DNA of 64,000 nt, taken from an uncultured Eubacteriales bacterium (GTDB lineage Bacteria; Bacillota; Clostridia; TANB77; CAG-508). The translations under genes and the position numbers were made by a program. The notes under the pieces were generated by a model, which was not told the origin of the DNA, did not search any database, and worked only from the letters and a program-made list of their open reading frames with translations. The stretch lies in the NCBI GenBank assembly GCA_949287075.1, contig CASEEU010000022.1, positions 32,010 to 96,009 of the forward strand, written 5' to 3'. Each line of letters begins with the position of its first letter. Within the stretch, counting starts at the first letter, position 1. This document shows positions 2,746 to 56,344 of this stretch, one piece after another.

Positions 2746-2752
2746 AAGTAAT

Positions 2753-2960
2753 TACAATTCAGTGTAAATGAGCTTGTATATATTTTTTTGATAAATTCCT
2801 CGGTTCAATACATGCTCTAGCCTTTCTAAAGATAAAAGAAACGAGCCTCTCGCTGCATCGCGCTTCCTCATTTCTTTTCTATTCAGAAAGGCTACGAGCA
2901 TTCCAATCACATTCGTCATTCATCAAAAAATATATACAAGCTCATTTACATTGAATTGTA
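2753..2960 (+). repeat. Palindromic element A: ~38-40 nt near-perfect terminal inverted repeats, a nested stem (gctc[g]tagcctttct) and a conserved core cgagcctctcgctgcatcgcgcttcctca
   Basis: Inverted repeats read directly (caattcagtgtaaatgagcttgtatatatttttttgat / reverse complement at 2922-2960); the core and both flanks (TTCCTCGG 5', CACATTCGTCA 3') are shared with element C at 59811-60036. Confidence 0.8.
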
Positions 2961-3017
2961 TTAAACATATAGTTATCTCTTATTATATAGATAAAAATAT
3001 CTACTTTAGAAGGAGAA

Positions 3018-3995
3018 ATGATGAGTTATATCAAGAAATTAAAAATAGGAAATGTAGAATTAGAAAATAATTTAATATTAGCACCTATGGCAGGTGTAAC
3101 CAATAGACCTTTTAGGATAATATGCAAAGAATATGGTGCAGGAATGGTTTGCACAGAAATGGCAAGTGCAAGAGCAATGTTTCATAATGATTTAAAAACT
3201 AAGAGATTGTTAAATACAGATGGAGAGAAAAGGCCAATTAGTATGCAAATATTTGGAAGTGATGAAGAATCAATGGCATATGCAGCAGAACATGTAAGTC
3301 AAAATGCAGATATTCTAGATATTAATATGGGATGTCCTGCACCAAAAGTTGTAAAAAATGGTGATGGTAGTAAATTATTATTAGATTTAGAAAAAGCAGA
3401 AAGTATCTTAAAAACAGTAATGGCACATTCAAAAGTTCCCGTTACTTTAAAAATTAGAAAAGGTTGGGATAAAGAAAACATTGTAGCTGTAGAAATAGCA
3501 AAAATTGCAGAAGCAGCTGGAATATCAGCAATAACTGTACATGGAAGAACAAGAAGTGAATTTTATACAGGAAAAGCTGATTTAGACATTATAAAACAGG
3601 TAAAAGAAAATGTACATATTCCAGTTATCGGAAATGGAGATGTGGTAGATGGTGAATCTGCAAAAAGAATGTTTGAATATACTGGTGTAGATGGTATTAT
3701 GATTGGAAGAGGAACTTTTGGAAAACCATGGATATTTAAGGAAATTATTGAATATTTAGAAACTGGTAAAAAAATGGATGAACCAACAAATGATGAAAAA
3801 CTAAAAATAATAGAGAAACATATAGATTTAGCAGTAGAAGAAAAAGGAGAAATTGCAATTAAGGAACTTCGAAAACATATTGCGTGGTATACTAAAAATC
3901 TTAAAAATTCAAGTGAATTTAGAAATTCTATTAATAAAATAGAAACAAAAGAGGAATTAATCCTTAAAATAGAAGAATATTTTAAAAGTCTCTAG
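3018..3995 (+). CDS. dusB: tRNA-dihydrouridine synthase
   Basis: 325 aa with an FMN-binding Dus signature (LAPMAGVTNRPFR, TIM-barrel motifs); RBS GGAGAA upstream. Confidence 0.9.
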   Translation: MMSYIKKLKIGNVELENNLILAPMAGVTNRPFRIICKEYGAGMVCTEMASARAMFHNDLKTKRLLNTDGEKRPISMQIFGSDEESMAYAAEHVSQNADILDINMGCPAPKVVKNGDGSKLLLDLEKAESILKTVMAHSKVPVTLKIRKGWDKENIVAVEIAKIAEAAGISAITVHGRTRSEFYTGKADLDIIKQVKENVHIPVIGNGDVVDGESAKRMFEYTGVDGIMIGRGTFGKPWIFKEIIEYLETGKKMDEPTNDEKLKIIEKHIDLAVEEKGEIAIKELRKHIAWYTKNLKNSSEFRNSINKIETKEELILKIEEYFKSL

Positions 3996-11566: not shown

Positions 11567-12397
11567 ATGGAACAAACTGTCAATTTTACTAAAATGCATG
11601 GATTGGGAAATGATTATATTTACATAGAAGCCATAAAAGGTAATCATCAAATAGATGAAGAAAAAAATATACAAAAGATCGTACGCTATTTATCAGATAG
11701 ACATTTTGGGATTGGAGGAGATGGCGTTATTTTTATAGAAAAAAGTAAAAATGCAGATTTTAAAATGAGAATGTTTAATAGTGATGGTTCTGAAGCAGAA
11801 ATGTGTGGAAATGGTATACGTTGTTTTGCAAAATATGTATATGACGAAGGATTTACACAAAAAGAAATTATAAAGATTGAAACTTTAGCAGGAATAAAAG
11901 AAGTAACATTCATAAAAGATAAACAAAATAGAATAGAAAAGGTGAAAGTAAATATGGGAATTCCCAAAATAGAAGAAAAGAAACAGATATTCCTTTTTGA
12001 CGAAAAGATGGAGATAAATGTTATATCTATGGGAAATCCACATGCAATCATATTTGTAGATAATGTAGAACATATAGACATAGAAAAGTATGGATCATTT
12101 ATAGAAAATCATGAAATATTTCCTCAAAAAACGAATGTAGAATTTGTACAAATTTTGGATAAAAATTTAATAAAAATGAGAGTATGGGAAAGAGGAGCAG
12201 GAGAAACTCTAGCTTGTGGAACAGGTGCATGTGCATCTGTTGTGGCAGGAGTAATCAACAATTTAACAAGAAGAAAAGTGAAAACATTATTAACTGGTGG
12301 AGAGTTAGAAATTGAATGGGAAAAGGAAACAAATGAAATATATATGACAGGAATTGCGACAAAAGTATTTGATGGAAAAATAAAATTGGACATTTGA
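11567..12397 (+). CDS. dapF: Diaminopimelate epimerase
   Basis: 276 aa; MHGLGNDYIYIE start, catalytic Cys motifs (EMCGNGIRC and ACGTGACAS). Confidence 0.92.
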   Translation: MEQTVNFTKMHGLGNDYIYIEAIKGNHQIDEEKNIQKIVRYLSDRHFGIGGDGVIFIEKSKNADFKMRMFNSDGSEAEMCGNGIRCFAKYVYDEGFTQKEIIKIETLAGIKEVTFIKDKQNRIEKVKVNMGIPKIEEKKQIFLFDEKMEINVISMGNPHAIIFVDNVEHIDIEKYGSFIENHEIFPQKTNVEFVQILDKNLIKMRVWERGAGETLACGTGACASVVAGVINNLTRRKVKTLLTGGELEIEWEKETNEIYMTGIATKVFDGKIKLDI

Positions 12398-12428
12398 GAA
12401 TATGTATTCTTAAATGTCCAATTAGATA

Positions 12429-13937
12429 TTAAGATATTTTTTTACTTTCTTTTTGTGAAGCAATCATTTCATCTATGATTTCAGCAATGACAACACGTTC
12501 ATTATAAGGATATTTTACACCCATATATTCAATATAAAGATCATTACCAAGACCAGGAATAACTAAAATATCATCTTTATTCATCATATGAATGGCATAT
12601 CGGATGGCTTCTGTTCTATTTAAAATAACCGTATAGGCACCACCAGATTTTTTTAGACCAACTTCAATATCTGCTAATATTTTTCTAGGATCTTCTGTTC
12701 TTACTTGATCAGATGTTAAAACAGTGAAATCAGCTAATGTTCCTGAAATTTCACCCATGATAGGACGTTTTTTAGCATCTCTGTCACCACCGACACCCCA
12801 AGTACAGATAACTCTACCTTTGGTATATGGTTTTACAGTTTTTAAAATAGATTCTAAGCTAGAAGGTGTATGTGCATAATCAATCATGATGGTATAACCT
12901 AATTTATTAGGAACCAATTCACTTCTACCAAAAACACTAAATGGATTTAATCCATTTTTAATACTATCAATGGTAGCTCCAAAATATCTAGTTACAGCAA
13001 TAGCACCAAGTGCATTGTAAGCCATATATTTTCCTGGGATAGATACAGTTACATTATCTGTATAGTCATTTGTGATTAAATCAAATGAAACAGAAGCATT
13101 GGTATAAGAGAAATCTTTTGCCATGACATCCGCTTTATGGTCAATTCCAAAAGTGATGATAGATTTGTTTCCTAGTAAATCAACGGCTTTTCTAGTATAA
13201 TCATTGTCTAAATTAAGAACACAAACAGGAGCTAATTTCATGATAGAAAGCTTTGCTTGATAATAATCTTCCATATTAGGATGTTCATTAGGACTGATAT
13301 GATCTTCACTTAAATTTGTGAAAAGACAAATATCAAAATCACATCCAACAACTCTATCAAGTTTCATAGATTGAGAAGAAACTTCTAGAATAGCAATATC
13401 AACACCTTCTTTAACCATCATATCTAAAGATTGTTGTATTTTATAACTTTCAGGTGTCGTTCTGTCTGTAATTTCTAATTGTTCATCATTAATGTAAATA
13501 GCAATACTTCCAATTAATCCTACTTTATATCCTTGTTTTTGTAAAATAGATTTTATCATAAAAGTAGATGTGGTTTTACCTTTTGTTCCTGTAACACCAA
13601 TTAGTTTTAATTTTTTAGAAGGATGATCATATAAATTACAACTGCATAATCCTAAATTTTTTCTAATAGAATCAACTTTTATTATAGGAATATTTGGATA
13701 ATTCACATCATCCATATTGGTATCTTGATCAACCACAATAGCAACTGCACCATTATCAATTGCACTATCGATAAAAGCAAGTCCATTTAATTTGTAACCA
13801 TTAATGGCAAAAAAAAGTCCATTCGGTTTTATGAGACGAGAATCAGAAGATATATTTGTGATTTCTACATTTAAATCACCTTTAGAATCCATAATATCAA
13901 TATCTTTGAAAACATCTTTTAATTTCATATTTAACAC
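12429..13937 (-). CDS. murE2: Second Mur ligase E paralog (UDP-MurNAc-L-Ala-D-Glu:diamino-acid ligase) carrying DQVR in place of the canonical DNPR motif
   Basis: 502 aa, full three-domain Mur ligase (GVTGTKGKTTST P-loop, MIDYAHTP); C-terminal region reads TSDQVRTEDP whereas the dcw-cluster MurE at 52447 has TSDNPRTEDP. Confidence 0.8.
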   Translation of the reverse strand: MLNMKLKDVFKDIDIMDSKGDLNVEITNISSDSRLIKPNGLFFAINGYKLNGLAFIDSAIDNGAVAIVVDQDTNMDDVNYPNIPIIKVDSIRKNLGLCSCNLYDHPSKKLKLIGVTGTKGKTTSTFMIKSILQKQGYKVGLIGSIAIYINDEQLEITDRTTPESYKIQQSLDMMVKEGVDIAILEVSSQSMKLDRVVGCDFDICLFTNLSEDHISPNEHPNMEDYYQAKLSIMKLAPVCVLNLDNDYTRKAVDLLGNKSIITFGIDHKADVMAKDFSYTNASVSFDLITNDYTDNVTVSIPGKYMAYNALGAIAVTRYFGATIDSIKNGLNPFSVFGRSELVPNKLGYTIMIDYAHTPSSLESILKTVKPYTKGRVICTWGVGGDRDAKKRPIMGEISGTLADFTVLTSDQVRTEDPRKILADIEVGLKKSGGAYTVILNRTEAIRYAIHMMNKDDILVIPGLGNDLYIEYMGVKYPYNERVVIAEIIDEMIASQKESKKIS

Positions 13938-14049: not shown

Positions 14050-14235
14050 CATTCGGTGTCGAATTCCTGAAGGATATATATATTATATTTTTCGCTATCC
14101 CAACACTTTACAGACTTTAACGAAATCAGCTCCCACGGGACTGTCGCTGATTTCATAAGAGTCTGTGCGTGTCGGTCCCCACGAAACCCGCTTAAAATAT
14201 AATATATATATTCTCCAAGAATTCGACACCGAACT
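14050..14235. repeat. Palindromic element B: 42-nt near-perfect terminal inverted repeats with a 7-nt internal mismatch patch, plus a nested stem acagact...gaaatcagc
   Basis: cattcggtgtcgaattcctgaaggatatatatattatatttt pairs with its reverse complement at the other end; lies between the divergent murE2 and dapL. Confidence 0.75.
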
Positions 14236-37461: not shown

Positions 37462-40400
37462 TTGAAAACAAATAGAATATTAAAAATTGATGGAACCATA
37501 CTAGATAAAAGGCAATTAGAAAACCATTTACAAAAAATTGCATCAAACCATAATTTAATCAATAAACCATCTAAAGAAACATATCCAATTCCTCAATTAA
37601 TAGAAAACTATGAAACCATAAAAATGGTTTATCATTTATTAAATGAACATGTAAAACTAGGAATGGCAACACATCCAGCAGGTGAATGGTTATTAGATAA
37701 TTTTTATATTATAGAAGAAACGGTAAAACAAATTCAAAAAGAATTAACATTAAAAAAATATATGAATTTTCTAGGGATTGCGAACGGAAAATACAAAGGA
37801 TTTGCCAGAATATATGTATTAGCAGCAGAGATTGTAGCCTATACAGATAATAAAATTGAAAAAGAAGACTTAGAAGATTATTTAGCAAGTTATCAAGAAA
37901 AAAAGACATTAAGTATGGAAGAAATCTGGAATATTGGTTTGTTTCTTCAAATAGCTATTATTGAAAATATTCGAGAAATTTGTGAAAAAATATACAGTAG
38001 TCAAATACAAAAAATGAAAGCAGAAAATATCGTACAAAAATTAATTGAAACACCACAAAATCATAAAGAAAATCATATATATCATTTGAAAAATATCAAA
38101 AAAGATATGTTACATGATGTCAAATATCCATTTATCGAATATATGTCCTATATCCTAAAACGATATGGAAAAAAGGGATATCGCTATTTAAAAATATTAG
38201 ATGAAATTGTAGAAATGACAGGAACAACAGTACAAGAAGTGATTAAAAAAGAACATTTTGATATTGCAGTAAAAAAAGTATCTATTGGAAATAGTATTAC
38301 CAGTATAAAAACCATACAAAGAATTAATTTTTTAGAGATTTTTGAAAAAATAAATGGTGTAGAAGAAATTCTAAAACAAGATCCGGCAGATGTATATTCT
38401 AAAATGGATAATCCGACAAAAGAGAGTTATAGAAATATCATTAAAGAAATATCGAAAAAAACAAAAATATCAGAAATTTATATAGCTAAAAAGATTTTAC
38501 AACTAGCAAAAGAGAATAAAGAAGATGAGAAAAAAGCACATATAGGATATTACATGATAGATAAAGGAATTGAAAAAGTTTATCAAGAATTACAGTATAA
38601 AGTACCAAAACATATGAGAGAAAAAACAAAACAAACATTATATATTGCAATGAATATCATCTTATCAATTGTCGTATCAATGGCATTTAGTAGTATTTTA
38701 AATCTATATATCAAAAATGTAGGAATATATCTGTTGAGTTTTTTCATTCTATTTATCCCATCTTCAGAAATTGTAACACAAATTATACAATATATCTTAA
38801 GTAAAATGGTAAAACCAAAAACCATTCCAAAAATCGATTTTTCAAAAGGAATCGATGAAGAACATGCATGTATGGTAGTCATTCCAACCATTTTGAAAAA
38901 TAAAGAAAAAGTAAAAGAATTGATGCACAAATTAGAAGTATATTATATTGCTAATCAATCAAAGAATTTGTATTTTACTTTGTTAGGAGATTGTTCAGAA
39001 AGTACTTTGCAAGAAGAAAAAGCGGACAATGAAGTGATTGAAACAGGAATACAATTAGCAGAAAAATTAAATAAAACATATGCAAAAGAAAATAATTTTC
39101 CTATTTTTCATTTTATCTATCGAAAAAGAGAATGGAATGAAAAAGAAAATTGTTATTTAGGTTGGGAAAGAAAAAGAGGGATGCTTACACAATTTAATGA
39201 ATATCTGTTAGAAAATGAAGAAAATGTATTTCGTACCAATACCATAGAGGAATATAAAGATTGTATTCCCCAAATACAATATGTGATTACATTAGATGCA
39301 GATACAGAGCTAATTTTAAATTCTGCATTTGAATTAGTAGGGGCAATGGCACATATCTTAAATAAACCAGTCATTGATGAAGAGAAAAATATTGTAGTAG
39401 AAGGACATGGAATGATTCAACCCAGAATTGGAATCAATTTGGAAATTTCATACAAAACCTTATTTACACAAATATTTGCAGGAGCAGGTGGATTAGATTC
39501 TTATACAAATGCCATTTCTGATTTATACCAAGATAATTTTGAAGAAGGTATTTTTACAGGAAAAGGAATCTATGATGTAAAGGTATTTTCAAGAGTACTA
39601 AAAAATGCCATACCAGAAAATACCGTATTAAGTCATGACTTATTAGAAGGATGTTATTTACGTTGTGGTTTAGCAACAGACATTATGCTAATGGATGGAT
39701 ATCCTTGCAAATATAATAGTTTTATGAACCGATTGTCTAGATGGATAAGAGGAGATTGGCAAATTATTGGTTGGTTAAAAGGAAAAGTAAATAGCAAAAT
39801 AGGAAACATACAAAATCCCTTAAATTGTCTTTCAAAATATAAAATTTTTGATAATTTAAGAAGAAGTTTTATTGAATGTATGGCTATCATTTCTCTTATT
39901 TTATTTGCTGTGTTAGGAAAACTATATCAATTTGAAACATATCCATTTGTTATCATAACTCTAATAGCAGTAGTCATGCCATATATTCTAGAAATGTTTA
40001 ATACCATGTTAGTAAAAAAAGAAGGGGAGCATAAACAAAAGAAATTTTCTCCAAAGATTTCAGGATATAAAGGAATTGGGCTAAGAATATTCATTATGAT
40101 AGGCGTATTACCATATAAAGCATATATTTCTTGTATAGCTATCATAAAAACATTGTATCGTAAATGGATTAGTCACAAAAAACTATTAGAATGGATGACA
40201 TCAGAAGAAGCAGAAAAACAAGCAAAAAATGATGTGATGTCATATGTAAAACAAATGTGGTTTAATATTGCTTTTGGAATTTTGAGCATAGGATATGCTT
40301 TAACTAGCAAAAATTTTGGAGATTTTATTATACAAACCATATTAGGTATTTTATGGATATTTGCACCTTTTATGATGTGGTATATTAGCAAAGAGAAAAA

Positions 40401-43400
40401 AGAAATAAAAGCAATTGAAACATTAGATAAAACAGAAATAGAATATATCTTAGAAATTGGAAGAAAAACATGGCAATTTTTTAAACAATACATTACCAAA
40501 GAAAATAATTATCTGATGTCAGATAATTATCAAGAAGATAGAAAACAAAAAATTGTTACAAGGACATCCTCAACCAATATAGGATTATCCATTTTAGCCA
40601 TTGTTTCAAGTTATGATTTACAATATGAAGCTTTACCAGAGACAATTGATTTGTTGTATAAAGTAGTCAATTCAGTGGATAGTCTGCAAAAATGGAATGG
40701 ACATTTATATAATTGGTATGATACAAAAACAAAAGAACCATTAAGACCAAGATATATTTCAACAGTAGATAGTGGGAATTTTGTGGGATATCTGTATGTA
40801 ACAAAAGCATTTTTAAAAGAAATACAAGAAATATTGCAAAATGATGATTTGTTGATTTCAAAACCAACAGAAACAAAAAAAACAATAGACATAACAAATA
40901 AAGAAGAAAAGGTGAAAGTACAAAATCAAATACATGAAATGTTGGAAATCATTAAAAGAATTATTGACCAAACAGACTTTACTAATTTATACAGTCAAGA
41001 ACATCAAATCTTTTCAATCGGATACAATATCGAAGAGAACAAATTAACAGATTCATATTATGACTTGTTAGCAACAGAGGCGAGACAAGCAAGTTTAGTT
41101 GCCATTGCCAAAAAAGATATTCCATCAAAACATTGGAACCATTTAAGTAGAACATTAACAGTTTTGGAAAAATATAAAGGATTGATTTCTTGGTCAGGAA
41201 CAGCATTTGAATATTTAATGCCAAATATCAATATTCCAAAATATAAAGGTAGCTTATTAGATGAATCTTGCAAATTTATGATGATGAGTCAAATGAAATA
41301 TGCAGAAGAAATGCATTTACCATTTGGCGTATCAGAAGCTGCGTTTAATTTAAAAGATTTACAATCCAATTATCAATATAAGGCGTTTGGAATTCCATGG
41401 CTAGGATTAAAAAGAGGATTGGCAGATGAAATGGTGGTATCTTCTTATGGTAGTATGTTAGCCATTACAGATATTCCAAAAGAAGTGGTAAAAAATTTAA
41501 AAATATTGGAACAATATGGAATGTACAACAAATATGGATTTTATGAATCTTTAGATTTTACACCAGAAAGAGTTAGAAAAGGAAAACAGGCAGAAGTTGT
41601 AAAAACATACATGGCACATCATCAAGGGTTGATTTTGTTATCAATTAACAATTTAATCAATCAATTCATTTTACAAAAACGATTTACAAAAAATCCAGAA
41701 ATACAAGCCGTTACCATATTACTTCAAGAAACGATGCCAGAAAAAGCCATTATTACAAAAGAAGATAAAGAAAAAGTAGAAAAATTAAAATATAAAGACT
41801 ATGAAGATTATATTGTAAGAGCGTATACCAAAATAGATGAAAGATTGATCACAGGAAATGTAATATCTAACGAAAATTACATGATAGCAATGAATCAAAA
41901 AGGGGAAGGATTTAGTCAATATAAAAATATGTATATTAATCATTTTAAACGTACAGATGATGATATACAAGGAATGATATTTTATATCAAAAGCATTAAA
42001 AATAAGCAAATCATGAGTTCAAGTTATTCACAAAATATAAAAAATGAAAATCAATATCAAATTCGATTTATGCCAGATAAAAATGAACAAGAGATAACAA
42101 GTGGAAATATAAAAGCAACCATAAAAATGACAGTGGCTTCAAATGAACCAGTGGAAATAAGAAGAATGATATTAGAAAATTTAGGAAATGAAGAAGAAAT
42201 TGTAGAATTAACAGGATATTTTGAACCCGTCTTGGCGCCAAAGGAACAATATTATGCTCATCCAGCATTTAATAATTTGTTTTTAGTATATGAATATGAT
42301 GAAAAAAATGAAGCTTTACTGGTAAAAAGAAAGAAAAGAGAATTAGGACAGAACGAAATCTTTTTAGCTACGACATTGCATGTGAGTAGGGATGATAGAA
42401 TTGGTGATTTAGAATATGAAATAGAAGAAGAAAAATTTATGGGAAGAGGAAATTTAAAAATACCAAAGATGGTAAAAGATTCATTGCCATTTTCTAAAAA
42501 AATAGGTCTTGTAACAGAACCAGTAGTTGCATTAAAAAGAACCATCAAAATAAAAAGCCAAGAAAAGGTAGTGGTTGATTTTATAGTATCTGTAGAAGAA
42601 AATAAAGAACAAACTGTTCAAAACTTAGAAAAATATATGTCTTTTGAAAATGTAAAAAATGAATTTGACTTGTCAAAAGCAAGGGTAGAAGCAGAAACAA
42701 GATATTTAAATGTAAAAGGAAAAGATATAGAAAACTTTCAAAAAATGTTGGCATATATCTTGTTTGATGATTCGATGAAAAGTGTGGAAAAAGAAAAAAT
42801 AAAACAAATACAATCATTCAAGCAAAATGATTTATGGAAATATGGAATATCAGGTGATTTACCAATCATATTGGTGAAAATGAAAAGTACAAATGATGCA
42901 GATGGATTAAAAGAAGTTTTAAAAGCATATGAATATTTTAAAACCAAAAATGTGGAGACAGAGATTGTGATAATAGACGAAGAAAAGTATAGTTATGAAA
43001 ATTATGTAAGAGAAGAAATAGAATCAACCATATTGAACCAACATATGGGATATTTAAAAAATATAAAAGGTGGAATCTTTATATTAAACGAAGAAGAAAT
43101 GGACGAAAAAGATATTACATTTTTAGAATTTATATCAATGATGACAATAGACTGTGAAAAAGGAAATTTAGAAAATAACCTAAAAGAAATAGAAGAAACT
43201 TATTTAGAAACCTATAAAGAAATTAGTGAAGAAGAAAACACAAATCAATTTATAGAAGAAAACACAGAAGATATCGACATCTTAAAAGATACAGAAAACT
43301 TGAAATATTATAATGAATATGGTGGTTTTTCAGAAGATGGAAAAGAATATTGGATATGTGTGAATAAACAAAAGCGTTTGCCAACTGTGTGGTCACATAT

Positions 43401-45753
43401 TATGGCAAATGAAACGTTTGGAACCATTGTTACAGAAAATATGGGAGGATATAGTTGGTACAAAAATAGCCGACTAAATCGATTAACCAGTTGGAATAAT
43501 AATCCAAGTCTTGACATTCCATCAGAAGTTATTTATGTAAAAGATATGGATACAAAGAAAAGCTGGTCTTTAGGATTAAACCCAATGCCAGATAATCAAA
43601 ACTATAATGTGGTTTATGGGTTTGGTTATTGTAAATATATGCATAGCCATTTAGGAATGGAACAAGAATTAGAAATCTTTGTTCCAAGGGAAGATAGTTG
43701 TAAAATTGGTATTTTAAAATTAAGTAATAAAACACCAAATCGAAAACATCTAAAACTATATTATTATATAAAACCAGTGATTGGAGAAGATGAATTCAAA
43801 ACATCTGGAAACATTCATATCAAATTTGATAGAAATAGTAATGTGATAACTGCCAATAATTTATATACAAATGAAATCGATCAAACAAAATTATATATGT
43901 CATCTAGTGAAAAAATAAAAAGTTATACAGGAGATAAAAAATTTTTCTTAGGAAAAAATGGGTTATCCAATCCAGATGGTATAAAAAAGCTTAGATTAAA
44001 TAATAGTGATGCCATTGGTAGAGAGACATGTATAGTAATGGAAATAGAAGTAGAAATTGAAAGTTTTTCTAATAAAGACATAGCCTTTATTTTAGGAGCA
44101 GAAGAAACCATAATGGATTGTAAAAATATAGCTTATAAATATAGTAAATTACAAAATTGTAAACAAGAATTAGAACGTGTAAAAAATTATTGGAAAGAAC
44201 TATTAGGAAAACTCCAAATATATACTCCATTAGAATCAACTAATATTTTATTAAATGGTTGGTGTATCTATCAAACATTAGAAAGTAGACTTTTAGGAAG
44301 AAGTGGATATTATCAATCAGGAGGTGCATTTGGATTTAGAGACCAATTACAAGACACGATTGCTTTAAAATATATTTCACCAGAATTTTTAAAACAACAA
44401 ATTATCAAACATAGTCAACATCAATTTGAAGAAGGAGATGTAGAACACTGGTGGCATGAAGAAACGGGTAGAGGAATTCGAACAAGATTTTCAGATGATT
44501 TACTATGGTTACCATATCTTGTATTACAATATATTCACTTTACAGGAGATGATAGCATTTTAGATATAGAAACACCATATTTAAAAGGTGCTATCTTAGA
44601 AGAAGGTGTAGATGAAAAATATGACAAATATCTACCAAGTGAAAAACAAGAAAGTATTTATTGGCATTGTATCAGAGCAATCGAAAAAAGTTTCAACTTT
44701 GGAGAAAATGGATTACCGAAAATTGGTAGTGGGGATTGGAATGATGGATTTAGTACAGTAGGAAATAAAGGAAGAGGAGAAAGTGTATGGTTAGGATTTT
44801 TCTTGTATAACATTTTAGACGAATTTATTCCAATATGTGAAATGATGGAAAAGAAAGAAAGAGAAAACTTAGAAGAAAATGTATATCATGAAGACGAATT
44901 TCAAAAGAAAGAAGTTGAAAGTCGAAGTGCAAAATGGAGAACAATCAAAATCCAATTGAAAAAAGCATTAAACACAAATGGTTGGGATGGCAGATGGTAT
45001 AAAAGAGCATTTATGGATGATGGAAATGTATTAGGTAGTATGGAAAATGATGAATGTAGAATTGATAGTATTGCACAAAGTTGGAGTATTATATCAAAAG
45101 CAGGAGATAATGATAAAAAATATATTTCAATGGAAAGTTTAGAAAATCATTTAGTAGATAAAGAAAATGGCATTATAAAACTATTAGACCCACCATTTGA
45201 AAAAGGACATTTAGAACCAGGATATATCAAAGCCTATTTACCAGGTGTCAGAGAAAATGGAGGACAATATACACACGCAAGTTGTTGGGCAATTATTGCA
45301 GAAGCATTATTAGGATTTGGAGATAAAGCCTTAGAATTTTATAGAATGATTAATCCAATCGAACATGCAAGAACAAAAGATGCTAGTAGTAAATATAAGG
45401 TAGAACCATATGCTATTGCAGCAGATATATATGGAGCAGGTAACCTAGCTGGAAGAGGTGGATGGACTTGGTATACAGGTTCAAGTAGTTGGTATTATAT
45501 TGCGGGAATCGAATATATATTAGGACTAAAAATAAAAGAAGGATATCTAACGATAGAACCATGCATTCCAAAAGATTGGAAAGAATATTTAATGAGATAT
45601 AAATGGAAAGATAGTATTTATAATATAAAAGTAATGAATCAAAATCAAAAAAATACGGGAGTAGAAAAAGTATTGTTGAATGGAGAAGAGGTTGAGAATA
45701 AGATAAAATTAGATGGAAGTAATAAAGTGTATCATATTGAGGTGTATATGTAG
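37462..45753 (+). CDS. cgs: Cyclic beta-1,2-glucan synthase homolog (Cgs/NdvB/ChvB-like: membrane GT84 glycosyltransferase domain plus C-terminal GH94 glucan phosphorylase domain)
   Basis: 2763 aa from a TTG start. The central region (ITLDADTELILNSAFELV...GHGMIQPRIGI...FAGAGGLDSYTNAISDLYQDNFEEGIFTGKGIYDVKVF...PENTVLSHDLLEG) matches the NdvB GT84 core, with multiple TM segments, and the C-terminal ~1000 aa are GH94-like. The length is characteristic of Cgs. Confidence 0.75.
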   Translation: MKTNRILKIDGTILDKRQLENHLQKIASNHNLINKPSKETYPIPQLIENYETIKMVYHLLNEHVKLGMATHPAGEWLLDNFYIIEETVKQIQKELTLKKYMNFLGIANGKYKGFARIYVLAAEIVAYTDNKIEKEDLEDYLASYQEKKTLSMEEIWNIGLFLQIAIIENIREICEKIYSSQIQKMKAENIVQKLIETPQNHKENHIYHLKNIKKDMLHDVKYPFIEYMSYILKRYGKKGYRYLKILDEIVEMTGTTVQEVIKKEHFDIAVKKVSIGNSITSIKTIQRINFLEIFEKINGVEEILKQDPADVYSKMDNPTKESYRNIIKEISKKTKISEIYIAKKILQLAKENKEDEKKAHIGYYMIDKGIEKVYQELQYKVPKHMREKTKQTLYIAMNIILSIVVSMAFSSILNLYIKNVGIYLLSFFILFIPSSEIVTQIIQYILSKMVKPKTIPKIDFSKGIDEEHACMVVIPTILKNKEKVKELMHKLEVYYIANQSKNLYFTLLGDCSESTLQEEKADNEVIETGIQLAEKLNKTYAKENNFPIFHFIYRKREWNEKENCYLGWERKRGMLTQFNEYLLENEENVFRTNTIEEYKDCIPQIQYVITLDADTELILNSAFELVGAMAHILNKPVIDEEKNIVVEGHGMIQPRIGINLEISYKTLFTQIFAGAGGLDSYTNAISDLYQDNFEEGIFTGKGIYDVKVFSRVLKNAIPENTVLSHDLLEGCYLRCGLATDIMLMDGYPCKYNSFMNRLSRWIRGDWQIIGWLKGKVNSKIGNIQNPLNCLSKYKIFDNLRRSFIECMAIISLILFAVLGKLYQFETYPFVIITLIAVVMPYILEMFNTMLVKKEGEHKQKKFSPKISGYKGIGLRIFIMIGVLPYKAYISCIAIIKTLYRKWISHKKLLEWMTSEEAEKQAKNDVMSYVKQMWFNIAFGILSIGYALTSKNFGDFIIQTILGILWIFAPFMMWYISKEKKEIKAIETLDKTEIEYILEIGRKTWQFFKQYITKENNYLMSDNYQEDRKQKIVTRTSSTNIGLSILAIVSSYDLQYEALPETIDLLYKVVNSVDSLQKWNGHLYNWYDTKTKEPLRPRYISTVDSGNFVGYLYVTKAFLKEIQEILQNDDLLISKPTETKKTIDITNKEEKVKVQNQIHEMLEIIKRIIDQTDFTNLYSQEHQIFSIGYNIEENKLTDSYYDLLATEARQASLVAIAKKDIPSKHWNHLSRTLTVLEKYKGLISWSGTAFEYLMPNINIPKYKGSLLDESCKFMMMSQMKYAEEMHLPFGVSEAAFNLKDLQSNYQYKAFGIPWLGLKRGLADEMVVSSYGSMLAITDIPKEVVKNLKILEQYGMYNKYGFYESLDFTPERVRKGKQAEVVKTYMAHHQGLILLSINNLINQFILQKRFTKNPEIQAVTILLQETMPEKAIITKEDKEKVEKLKYKDYEDYIVRAYTKIDERLITGNVISNENYMIAMNQKGEGFSQYKNMYINHFKRTDDDIQGMIFYIKSIKNKQIMSSSYSQNIKNENQYQIRFMPDKNEQEITSGNIKATIKMTVASNEPVEIRRMILENLGNEEEIVELTGYFEPVLAPKEQYYAHPAFNNLFLVYEYDEKNEALLVKRKKRELGQNEIFLATTLHVSRDDRIGDLEYEIEEEKFMGRGNLKIPKMVKDSLPFSKKIGLVTEPVVALKRTIKIKSQEKVVVDFIVSVEENKEQTVQNLEKYMSFENVKNEFDLSKARVEAETRYLNVKGKDIENFQKMLAYILFDDSMKSVEKEKIKQIQSFKQNDLWKYGISGDLPIILVKMKSTNDADGLKEVLKAYEYFKTKNVETEIVIIDEEKYSYENYVREEIESTILNQHMGYLKNIKGGIFILNEEEMDEKDITFLEFISMMTIDCEKGNLENNLKEIEETYLETYKEISEEENTNQFIEENTEDIDILKDTENLKYYNEYGGFSEDGKEYWICVNKQKRLPTVWSHIMANETFGTIVTENMGGYSWYKNSRLNRLTSWNNNPSLDIPSEVIYVKDMDTKKSWSLGLNPMPDNQNYNVVYGFGYCKYMHSHLGMEQELEIFVPREDSCKIGILKLSNKTPNRKHLKLYYYIKPVIGEDEFKTSGNIHIKFDRNSNVITANNLYTNEIDQTKLYMSSSEKIKSYTGDKKFFLGKNGLSNPDGIKKLRLNNSDAIGRETCIVMEIEVEIESFSNKDIAFILGAEETIMDCKNIAYKYSKLQNCKQELERVKNYWKELLGKLQIYTPLESTNILLNGWCIYQTLESRLLGRSGYYQSGGAFGFRDQLQDTIALKYISPEFLKQQIIKHSQHQFEEGDVEHWWHEETGRGIRTRFSDDLLWLPYLVLQYIHFTGDDSILDIETPYLKGAILEEGVDEKYDKYLPSEKQESIYWHCIRAIEKSFNFGENGLPKIGSGDWNDGFSTVGNKGRGESVWLGFFLYNILDEFIPICEMMEKKERENLEENVYHEDEFQKKEVESRSAKWRTIKIQLKKALNTNGWDGRWYKRAFMDDGNVLGSMENDECRIDSIAQSWSIISKAGDNDKKYISMESLENHLVDKENGIIKLLDPPFEKGHLEPGYIKAYLPGVRENGGQYTHASCWAIIAEALLGFGDKALEFYRMINPIEHARTKDASSKYKVEPYAIAADIYGAGNLAGRGGWTWYTGSSSWYYIAGIEYILGLKIKEGYLTIEPCIPKDWKEYLMRYKWKDSIYNIKVMNQNQKNTGVEKVLLNGEEVENKIKLDGSNKVYHIEVYM

Positions 45754-49742: not shown

Positions 49743-50240
49743 ATGGCAGCAAGATATCAATATGAAACAAGTCCAAGAAAGTTAGAACCGGATATTAGAA
49801 AAGAAAAGAAAAAACAAAATATTAAAGTAGTAAAAGACTTGCCAAAGCAAGATGTAAAATTATCAAAAGAACAAAAAATGAAACATAGAAAAGCAACTTT
49901 ATTAGTTATGGTTATATTTGCTGTATTATTTACCATAAGTTATCGAAATACTCAAATTAACGAAAAATTTAATGAAATGCAAGAATTAAAAACAAAATTA
50001 TCATCATTACAAAAGGAAAATGAACAATTGCAAGTAACAATAGAAAATAGTCTAAATTTAAGCAATATAGAAAAACAAGCAAAAGAAAAATTAGGTATGC
50101 AAAAATTAACGAATAAACAAACAGTGTATGTTAGTTTACCTAAAAAAGATTATATAGAATCTGCAACAGAAAAAGTAGAGATTAGTGACAATAATGAAAA
50201 TTGGTTTCAAAAATTAGTTGATAAAATTTTTAATAAATAA
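49743..50240 (+). CDS. ftsL: Cell division protein FtsL-like (septum formation initiator family)
   Basis: 165 aa bitopic protein: basic N-terminus, TM segment (LLVMVIFAVLFTISY), coiled coil; located between rsmH and the PBP gene. Confidence 0.7.
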   Translation: MAARYQYETSPRKLEPDIRKEKKKQNIKVVKDLPKQDVKLSKEQKMKHRKATLLVMVIFAVLFTISYRNTQINEKFNEMQELKTKLSSLQKENEQLQVTIENSLNLSNIEKQAKEKLGMQKLTNKQTVYVSLPKKDYIESATEKVEISDNNENWFQKLVDKIFNK

Positions 50241-50354
50241 TTTTATAATAATACAAAAGTAGTCAATAGCATATATTAAAAATATATGCTATTGACTACT
50301 TTTGTATAGGCATAAAAATATTCACCTCTAATACATATTATTAGAGGTGTTTTT

Positions 50355-56207: not shown

Positions 56208-56344
56208 CCAAAGGGGACGAGTGATGATTTTGGGGACGGAGCAAAAAATCATCATTTATAGAAATATTTCATTTAATACTTTTTGAAGAACAATATGATG
56301 ATTTTTTGCTCCGTCCCCAAAATCATCAGCACGATCCCTTTGGT
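56208..56344. repeat. Palindromic element D: 47-nt near-perfect inverted repeats (with a 7-nt mismatch patch) flanking a 40-45-nt AT-rich loop, GC-richer than its surroundings
   Basis: ccaaaggggacgagtgatgattttggggacggagcaaaaaatcatca pairs with tgatgattttttgctccgtccccaaaatcatcagcacgatccctttgg; intergenic between ftsW and murG. Confidence 0.8.

Follow-up and report, generated by a model that had tools for sequence, protein, structure and literature searches.

The window analysed here, a 64,000 nt (64 kb) stretch of contig CASEEU010000022.1 from an uncultured Eubacteriales bacterium, contains two nested palindromes, here named elements A and C, that are the subject of this study. Element A (2753-2960) lies in the gap between rodA (1639-2745) and dusB (3018-3995), and element C (59810-60037) in the gap between lepB (59145-59783) and holB (60112-61008). 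Both had been proposed from the window sequence as copies of a structured RNA or DNA family and proved to be real at the positions given. When their fold energies were compared with those of shuffled sequences, each folded as a single long nested hairpin, with -85.1 kcal/mol for A (z -14.2) and -113.1 kcal/mol for C (z -18.6).

The elements are 208-228 nt long and have four layers, namely outer arms, shell loops, an inner stem and a GC-rich tip. The outer arms had been described as perfect inverted repeats. This holds for C, where they span 50 nt, but not for A, where they span 36 nt at 97% with a single G.T, the 3' arm reading cattgaattg and not cactgaattg. The inner stems, also described as perfect, are 28 nt long and 86-89% complementary, and their mismatches and bulges are themselves kept across copies. 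The apical tip is 28-29 nt long and 66-68% GC, in a genome of 27.5% GC.

Read on the + strand, A begins with a 5' outer arm (2753-2795; inverted repeat I4 and fold) that opens with the family terminal motif (T)TACAATTCAGTG and whose left boundary was set from strain alleles without the element. The unpaired 5' shell loop TTCCTCGGTTCAATAC (2796-2811) is found in all copies and is kept where the inner module differs or is missing. It is followed by the 5' half of the inner stem (2812-2841; inverted repeat I7), which is of the A-subfamily type and covaries among A-type copies. The module boundary, CAATAC|ATGC, was placed using a module swap in the related contig L074, described below. The apical core X, CGAGCCTCTCGCTGCATCGCGCTTCCTCA (2842-2870; 66% GC), is followed by the 3' half of the inner stem (2871-2901; fold, inverted repeat and the L074 swap), the 3' shell loop TCCAATCACATTCGTCA (2902-2918; conserved motif, alignment of copies and L074) and the 3' outer arm (2919-2960). 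Element C, also on the + strand, has the same plan. Its 5' outer arm (59810-59861; inverted repeat I1 and fold) opens with GTTTCAGTATTTTT and leads into the 5' shell loop TTCCTCGGCTTGTTTC (59862-59877), which is conserved across copies. The 5' half of the inner stem (59878-59907; inverted repeat and covariation) is of the C-subfamily type and includes TTCTAAG, and the 3' half (59936-59966) includes CTAAGAA, a conserved A.A mismatch and a bulged C. Between them lies the apical core X, CGAGCCTCTCGCTGCTCGCGCTTCCTCA (59908-59935), by which C belongs to the exact-core family described below. The 3' shell loop TCCACGGCACATTCGTCA (59967-59984), again conserved across copies, is followed by the 3' outer arm (59985-60037; fold and inverted repeat). 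A compensated pair of single-nucleotide polymorphisms (SNPs) that segregates within the species lies in the two outer arms of C.

Three motifs are common to A and C and are not expected by chance, as had been claimed for the unpaired flanks and core. These are TTCCTCGG (2796-2803 and 59862-59869), the core CGAGCCTCTCGCTGC(A)TCGCGCTTCCTCA (2842-2870 and 59908-59935) and CACATTCGTCA (2908-2918 and 59974-59984). The a/t difference reported within the core is, however, a 1 nt indel. The shell is an asymmetric internal loop in which TTCCTCGG(Y)T... faces ...CACATTCGTCA. The stems of A and C had been taken as completely different yet complementary. The covariation is genuine, but the outer ends of both elements carry TTCAGT...ACTGAA, their inner stems both carry TTCTAA...AGAA, and stems of the same subfamily are homologous. 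Readings of the conserved motifs as a dif/Xer site, a sigma-54 upstream activating sequence, a Noc/parS-like site or a k-turn fitted poorly by eye and were dropped.

All sequences compared here are metagenome assemblies. Related genomes were represented by 8-21 kb pieces, and copy numbers, partner genes and orientation statistics come from approximately 15 independent loci. Labels such as L001 and L074 refer to related loci or contigs, and X, Y and Z to inner modules with their tips. An exact scan for the core in genome loci and a metagenome established that the family is real, returning 17 further loci in seven metagenome-assembled genomes (MAGs) of uncultured Clostridia/Eubacteriales, with at most four per MAG, and five true copies on contigs of one metagenome. 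The other 18 metagenome matches were chance matches in GC-rich DNA. A whole-element profile found no more copies in the window. The copies fall into two subfamilies plus variants, with C-type copies in the majority and the A-type represented by A itself, L002, L013, L024 and L058. Inside each subfamily, inner stems are homologous and outer arms are visibly related at both ends. Six sets of copies are orthologous between species (L001/L012/L015, L003/L004/L007/L027, L005/L009, L006/L010/L023, L011/L016 and L014/L021).

The terminal motif of A-like elements is TTACA(A/G)TTCAGT and that of C-like elements is GTTTCAGT, and the shared terminal sequence is limited to the outermost 10-13 nt or so (GTTTCAGTATTTTT in C-like elements). 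TTACA(A/G)TTCAGT termini also bound several elements with unrelated interiors. Outer termini are thus conserved in the manner of terminal inverted repeats, contrary to the suggestion that the elements are the opposite of MITEs (miniature inverted-repeat transposable elements). The flanks often lengthen the palindrome by 2-4 bp (TTAA/TTAA, TCA/TGA or CC/GG). No autonomous insertion sequence (IS) with matching ends was found within approximately 540 kb of related loci.

Orientation of the core relative to neighbouring genes is mixed, at approximately five loci co-directional in the sense orientation, six antisense and four divergent. The sense orientation after a gene end that had been noted for A and C is therefore correct for both but is not a property of the family. 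No copy lay between convergent genes at the roughly 15 loci, a small sample. Every copy has a gene start approximately 10-130 nt from one end (292 nt at L013), and many lie 1-8 nt from a stop codon. The neighbouring genes are unrelated housekeeping genes with no functional theme. Scans of either strand found no conserved sigma-70-type promoter or intrinsic terminator, and inspection of both strands found no sigma-A, extended -10 or sporulation-sigma motif conserved at a fixed position. An ATG-initiated frame of 10-12 codons occurs in some copies, is not conserved, and was rejected as a small open reading frame (ORF).

Searches of databases and literature returned nothing that would name the family. 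At gathering scores, Rfam had no match in the window, in the two elements or in 125 kb of related loci, and permissive thresholds returned just sub-threshold plant miRNA-precursor hairpins. There was no match when A and C were compared with plasmids, and C with phages, using blastn, or when viral contigs were scanned for the pattern. Full-text searches with the core and terminal sequences found no relevant paper, and neither did a literature search for MITEs in Clostridia. The family is previously undescribed, and its distribution is limited to a clade of uncultured gut Clostridia with low GC.

Stem covariation and constraint on the interior

Covariation was assessed in 14 C-type copies. Of the cells in paired positions, 97.6% were paired, against 85.4% after shuffling. 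Both sides had changed at 38/83 pairs, a number reached in none of 500 shuffles, and controls in which the partner columns were slid by 1-3 gave 5-10. In the outer helices, 31/45 pairs covary. There, G.U was found in seven cells (approximately 1%) and A.C in 11, and this asymmetry, tried as a test for strand and RNA, gave no signal. Alternative Watson-Crick pair types were 25 of the transition type and 28 of the transversion type (28/53). Compensation at the RNA level usually proceeds via G.U and is transition-biased. Strict Watson-Crick pairing that holds on both strands is instead the expected outcome of copying one arm from the other. Replication template switching is described in two reports as homogenizing the arms of repeats, introducing compensated changes of several bases, lengthening stems and inverting the spacer (PMC8604942, PMC13100816). 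It keeps stems perfect and yields 'covariation' of this kind (PMC8794818).

Arm homogenization, compensated multi-base changes, stem extension and spacer inversion are all found in this family. At C, the compensated SNP pair (G...C or A...T) segregates among strains in four and five contigs, respectively, with one aberrant contig, and the alleles at A are set apart by multi-base differences that lie in clusters. L011 has its interior inverted in place when compared with the ortholog L016, and the locus-specific arms are the same. Template switching within the element during replication would, judging from these patterns, be the main process maintaining arm complementarity, and it would also account for the in-place inversion and the clustered multi-base changes.

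Conservation of the interior has a different character. In seven orthologous pairs, we compared the interior with four-fold degenerate sites of the flanking genes using Fisher's test. Identity at four-fold sites was 74-80% in six of the seven pairs and 92% in L003/L007, and the outer arms were 81-98% identical. The 124 nt interior was 98-100% identical in five pairs (0-3/124 differences), and in both pairs with L015 it was 88-90% identical (12-15/124 differences), compared with differences at 8-26% of four-fold sites in the same seven pairs (p = 5e-14 to 3e-3). In the extreme pair, the interior had 0/124 differences and four-fold sites 104/416 (p = 5e-14). For the window and L051, where four-fold identity was 0.60-0.69, the arms are approximately 60% and the interior approximately 88% identical by eye. 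The interior is exactly 124 nt, with no indels, in 14/14 C-type copies, and the span from TTCCTCGG to CATTCG is 119-120 nt in every copy with an X core. Within the tip, the loop of a mini-hairpin is variable and the flanks of the mini-hairpin are fixed.

Concerted evolution was considered as the cause and rejected. Identities between orthologous interiors were mostly 0.98-1.00 (0.88 in the two L015 pairs), against 0.88-0.96 between paralogs of the same genome. As most orthologs are more alike than same-genome paralogs, interior conservation is not due to concerted evolution. As the interior changes slowly relative to four-fold sites, we conclude that it is functionally constrained. On these rate comparisons, the loops, inner stem and tip are under purifying selection at each locus, so that conservation of loops and tip, which had been seen between A and C only, is attributable to selection and not to chance or recency. 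The arms drift at the neutral rate or a little below it, limited only by complementarity.

Alleles and modules at orthologous gaps

Four alleles of the rodA-dusB gap were found among contigs with identical RodA. The first, in the window and five contigs, has the full element A. In the second, L074, the arms and shell loops are identical to those of A and enclose another inner module, Y, with an inner stem gaatgccaagaaattctaaaataattttatgg/... and tip CGCCCTTTCACGTCAAGCGCGAACATTTT. The swap point lies exactly between CAATAC| and |TCCAATC. A third allele, in three contigs, has divergent, fully compensated arms, and its module Y has been reduced to GAATGCCAAGAAATTC by a deletion between ATTC repeats. 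The fourth (L059/L060/L069) is a near-empty footprint that retains the last 20 nt or so of the 3' arm of the third allele, together with its flank SNPs, and aligns with the final 13 nt of the 3' arm of A. The allele with module Y has independent support from three other samples, in which its truncated derivative occupies this locus. The layers behave independently, and the inner module can be replaced inside unchanged arms. That copies in other strains might carry different cargo had been anticipated, and L074 is such a copy.

The window and the third allele share 99.9% nucleotide identity in rodA and 99.4% in dusB. The intergenic region between these genes (window 2746-3017, compared with L066 and L069), including the 60 nt spacer outside the palindrome, differs at approximately 15-25% of positions. 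Taken by themselves, the arms and this downstream spacer differ between the window and the third allele at about one position in five. The differences are clustered, consistent with template-switch mutation clusters, and the region is a hypervariable island. In the window allele, one cluster creates a 6 bp inverted repeat, TTATCT/AGATAA. The same gap holds another palindrome in a more distant relative (GGGCCAGGTCATAAAATGTATTT...AAATACATTTTATGACCTGGCCC; L064:9826-10001), and the rodA-dusB gap has therefore acquired hairpin elements repeatedly.

The lepB-holB gap is similarly variable among species. It is empty, with only a terminator, approximately 40 nt and a promoter, in a species with 79% HolB identity, and only 20 nt long in one with 86% HolB identity. 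In a species with 92% HolB identity, it contains a C-type element whose core is a variant and which has been invaded by a three-hairpin element of approximately 170 nt. At 74% HolB identity, the gap holds an A-type element (L058), where the window has the C-type. The gap is empty in L055 and L056. The empty site of L055 was considered for mapping the insertion junctions of C and was too diverged to decide them.

In L013 (2554-2769), a shell of the A type encloses a third module, Z. The tips of X, Y and Z have pyrimidine-rich flanks around a variable mini-hairpin in common. The three-hairpin element is a second small element of 146-169 nt (L051:9588-9756, L051:17098-17243 and L057:7018-7173), with covarying stems and the conserved joints ...GCACA...GCG.YGA.CAA...TTGT(T)C. 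It sits inside two X-type elements, in the 5' shell loop of one and the 3' inner stem of the other, and inside a Z-core-like element with another shell in L057. In two contigs, different genomic neighbourhoods meet at an X-type element. The sequence from the L005 locus in L048 (its left flank and the 5' arm) is joined to the 3' arm of C and holB. In L057 (9657-10001 and 15440-15720), lepB is inverted and just the 3' part of an X-type element is left. These junctions could be real rearrangements via the shared interior or mis-joins across its shared 120 nt.

Element B (window 14052-14233), a nested hairpin between Mur ligase and aminotransferase genes, comes from another family that has evolved in the same way, and its shell and core differ from those of A and C. 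Element B and a relative in L001 (6696-6890) have in common the conserved loops CGCTATCCCAACACTTTACA and GCGTGTCGGTCCCC(A/C)CGAAACCCGCTT and the tip TCCCACGGGACTGT, and the inner stem and all except the inner 20 nt or so of the outer stem have been replaced by other complementary sequences. The L001 relative ends in TTACAGTTCAGTG, which is the terminus of A-type elements. For element B, strain-level comparison involved one contig only. In the window, the minus-strand Mur ligase gene and element B (12429-13937 for the interval noted) lie between DAP-epimerase and aminotransferase genes that are adjacent in L062 and L063, which suggests that the Mur ligase gene and element B came or went together. 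Elsewhere in the window, an 88% palindrome with 42 nt arms and a 3 nt loop (50236-50322), located after an ftsL/divIC-like gene and before a penicillin-binding protein gene, is probably a terminator-like hairpin, and a 2763 aa ORF occupies 37462-45753.

The nature of the elements

The reading that we favour, to which we give about an even chance, places A and C in an old repeat family, dispersed and low in copy number, whose units are modular fold-back (nested-palindrome) DNA. For a trans-acting factor, the interior probably serves as a recognition module. It would be recognized by a protein as folded single-stranded DNA or as a cruciform, and a REP-associated tyrosine (HUH/Y1) transposase, or RAYT, where REP denotes repetitive extragenic palindromic sequence, would be the leading candidate kind, with a host DNA-binding factor as the alternative. 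Movement and loss of elements may follow a single-strand hairpin route like that of REPINs, the hairpin-forming elements made from REPs. On this reading, the family resembles a REPIN or MITE in its behaviour, and mobile, recombining hairpin DNA more than an RNA gene.

Relatives of the window carry a Y1/HUH gene downstream of holB, between ferredoxin and thiamine pyrophosphokinase genes (L055:12216-12884, also delimited as 12126-12884, with the frame open further upstream). Its best-matching model is the REP-associated tyrosine transposase NF047646, at 61-67 bits where the cut-off is 80, and the IS200 model scored 25 bits. This RAYT-like gene is also in L056, and its product has a C-terminal extension. 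Homologs with 67-77% identity are on contigs matched to those of the HolB and DusB orthologs by size only, which suggests that the gene is single-copy, syntenic and vertically inherited, as is typical of RAYTs. It is missing from L051, and a remnant is present in L053 and L054 (12200-12600). At the counterpart site in the window there is an unrelated 226 aa ORF (62279-62959) with no Pfam hit.

The upstream flank of the RAYT-like gene carries GGGGATTTTGGGGACGGA, the arm motif of a different palindrome in the window and unlike A and C. That palindrome is a perfect 34 nt inverted repeat (...GATTTTGGGGACGGAGC...; 56222-56328) between ftsW and murG that overlaps the first possible murG start. Palindromic doublets or tandems of the GGGGACGG motif are present at L064:12114-12302 and L051:18176-18380, and the GGGGACGG palindrome looks like the true REP/REPIN of the clade.

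Several findings weigh against the fold-back repeat reading. Copy number is low, with two copies per 64 kb in the window, and the flanks of approximately 15 copies contain no direct target-site duplication or clean insertion junction. There is no transposase or RAYT in the 64 kb window, where tblastn with the RAYT-like protein gave no match. It is the GGGGACGG motif, and not an A/C-type element, that flanks the RAYT-like gene directly on its upstream side in L055 (12070-12100). No X-type copy was found in approximately 38 kb of L055 and L056, where the RAYT-like gene is intact, or in approximately 38 kb of L053 and L062, from the lineage with the remnant. Purifying selection on each resident copy is unexpected for a purely selfish element and points to a function at the level of the host. 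The asymmetric footprint can equally be an ordinary slippage deletion stimulated by the hairpin, L048 could be an assembly chimera across the 120 nt shared interior, and template switching is inferred from patterns rather than observed.

A structured non-coding RNA, as the original prediction had it, is a real possibility, if an unlikely one. The interior would be functional, with loops that bind protein or RNA, and the outer duplex would be a sequence-free processing or stabilizing stem, e.g. an RNase III site like the stems of rRNA processing. Such an RNA would explain the strong covariation, the purifying selection that acts site by site on the loops and tip of every locus, the fixed 124 nt length and the variable mini-hairpin loop between fixed flanks. 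At one position near the core, the alternatives C.A and U-A of the + strand become U.G and U-A when the - strand is read, and the loops are only approximately 29% purine on the + strand, so the - strand looks more RNA-like, which is opposite to the orientation first assigned. However, perfect Watson-Crick stems of 40-50 bp with approximately 1% G.U and half of the swaps being transversions are atypical of selection at the RNA level, and in-place inversion, module swap, presence/absence polymorphism and turnover of elements are behaviours of DNA elements. Comparison with Rfam, permissive E-values included, produced no family, neither strand has a conserved promoter or intrinsic terminator, and with mixed gene orientation read-through would give different strands at different loci. 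In these sequence data we found no evidence for dedicated strand-specific RNA genes.

We regard it as quite unlikely that the shell, carried on a long DNA hairpin whose sequence is free, is a dedicated platform for the exchange of GC-tipped modules X, Y and Z, in a new kind of single-strand hairpin recombination or cassette system, or else that the family consists of host-maintained, fold-back-scaffolded RNAs freed from a sequence-free duplex. Each copy would be under purifying selection either way.

Improbable, too, is a cis-acting DNA site of the host, at which a cruciform or hairpin would serve as an orientation-independent binding platform, mostly upstream of genes, for a chromosomal protein with a nucleoid, replication/repair or regulatory role. 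No candidate protein was found, the neighbouring genes lack a common functional theme, and the conserved termini, alternative modules and frequent loss would be left unexplained. In-situ purifying selection and independence of orientation are in keeping with such a site, as are TTCCTC direct repeats approximately 67 nt apart in the unpaired parts of the elements and the gene start near one end of every copy. Convergent contexts (0/~15, against four divergent) may be lacking by chance in so small a sample.

Long inverted repeats around an asymmetric segment of approximately 125 nt beside gene starts, and the opposite orientations of L011 and L016 at one orthologous locus, recall an invertible switch (inverton), in which the arms would be recombination sites and the flipping interior would alter expression of a neighbour. 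This is very improbable. A single orientation was found within the species of the window, in ten contigs at C and six at A (five and the window), and the sole inversion is between species. The arms differ among copies, leaving no common recombinase site beyond the extreme ends, there is no convincing promoter within the interior, and no recombinase or invertase gene recurs beside the sampled copies, a tyrosine-recombinase-like neighbour being found only at L017. Functionless palindromic debris, i.e. old MITE relics kept perfect purely by template switching, which alone can keep arms complementary (PMC8794818), in genomes that are full of other palindromic repeats, is scarcely credible given an interior that has no indels in 14 copies and whose rate of change is below that of four-fold sites by a factor of some 10 or more in five of seven pairs and of approximately 2-3 in the two L015 pairs.

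Relation to known repeats

The fold-back family resembles the REPIN/RAYT system in that its members are non-coding intergenic elements with a long hairpin, common compensatory changes and long vertical persistence at orthologous sites, and its clade has a syntenic RAYT-like gene that is apparently single-copy. REPIN hairpins likewise show compensatory changes, and in the excision described by Bertels and Rainey, loss starts at the left end and stops in the right arm, and the 3' remnant left behind is complementary to the 5' tail that was cut out (PMC3116915). The rodA-dusB footprint, in which the terminal 13-20 nt of the 3' arm survive, has the same asymmetry, although a slippage deletion would look alike. 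The A/C family is without the REP architecture tagged with GTAG or CGTC (PMC3733652). Whereas a REPIN consists of two short GC-rich REPs in inverted orientation, with conserved arms and a variable spacer, A/C elements have one GC-rich apical hairpin, an interior that is the most conserved part and AT-rich arms that are mostly locus-specific. The low copy number, the window without a RAYT and the other motif that flanks the RAYT-like gene of relatives are further differences.

ERIC/IRU, Correia, RUP and BOX elements are hairpin-forming, non-coding intergenic repeats of 100-250 bp. The A/C family is like them in varying between presence and absence among strains, in having subfamilies and a terminal inverted motif that is conserved, and in undergoing nested insertion and internal deletion. 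It differs from MITE-like repeats in that its copies showed no target-site duplication and an autonomous IS with the same ends was not found, the 'terminal inverted repeat' is mostly locus-specific yet perfectly compensated, the interior is under purifying selection in situ, and the apical module is exchangeable.

Arm homogenization, compensated changes, stem extension and spacer inversion are shared with quasipalindromes and template-switch repeats, as described in PMC8604942, PMC8794818 and PMC13100816. However, template switching is a mutational mechanism and not a class of element, and it leaves the conserved loops, the termini and the dispersal unexplained.

The attC sites of integrons are 57-141 nt long, have R''/L''-L'/R' boxes (RYYYAAC...GTTRRRY) and flank coding cassettes in arrays beside intI. 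Recognition of a folded single strand, free stem sequence, a few conserved unpaired or extrahelical features and cassette-like exchange would be common to both. The ends of A/C elements, GTTTCAG...CTGAAAC, do not fit RYYYAAC or GTTRRRY, however, and at 208-228 nt, with no array and no integrase, the copies are solitary and intergenic between housekeeping genes. As A and C did not prove to belong to the REPINs, the classical MITEs, the attC sites or any Rfam family, we file them as a variant of the palindromic intergenic repeat kind and as members of no named family.

This case separates perfect 'covariation' from RNA function and is a warning that covariation in long perfect hairpins is no proof of RNA. 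Read-through transcripts would nevertheless hold a long perfect duplex, which could affect mRNA processing. Hypervariable islands between otherwise identical genes matter for strain typing and for the assembly of MAGs, and the elements may act as breakpoints for rearrangement, as two contigs, one of them possibly chimeric, suggest. For uncultured gut Clostridia, A and C represent a new repeat family that is modular, partly mobile and constrained by the host. The module swap and the asymmetric, excision-like footprint segregate within one species, making the mechanism directly testable.

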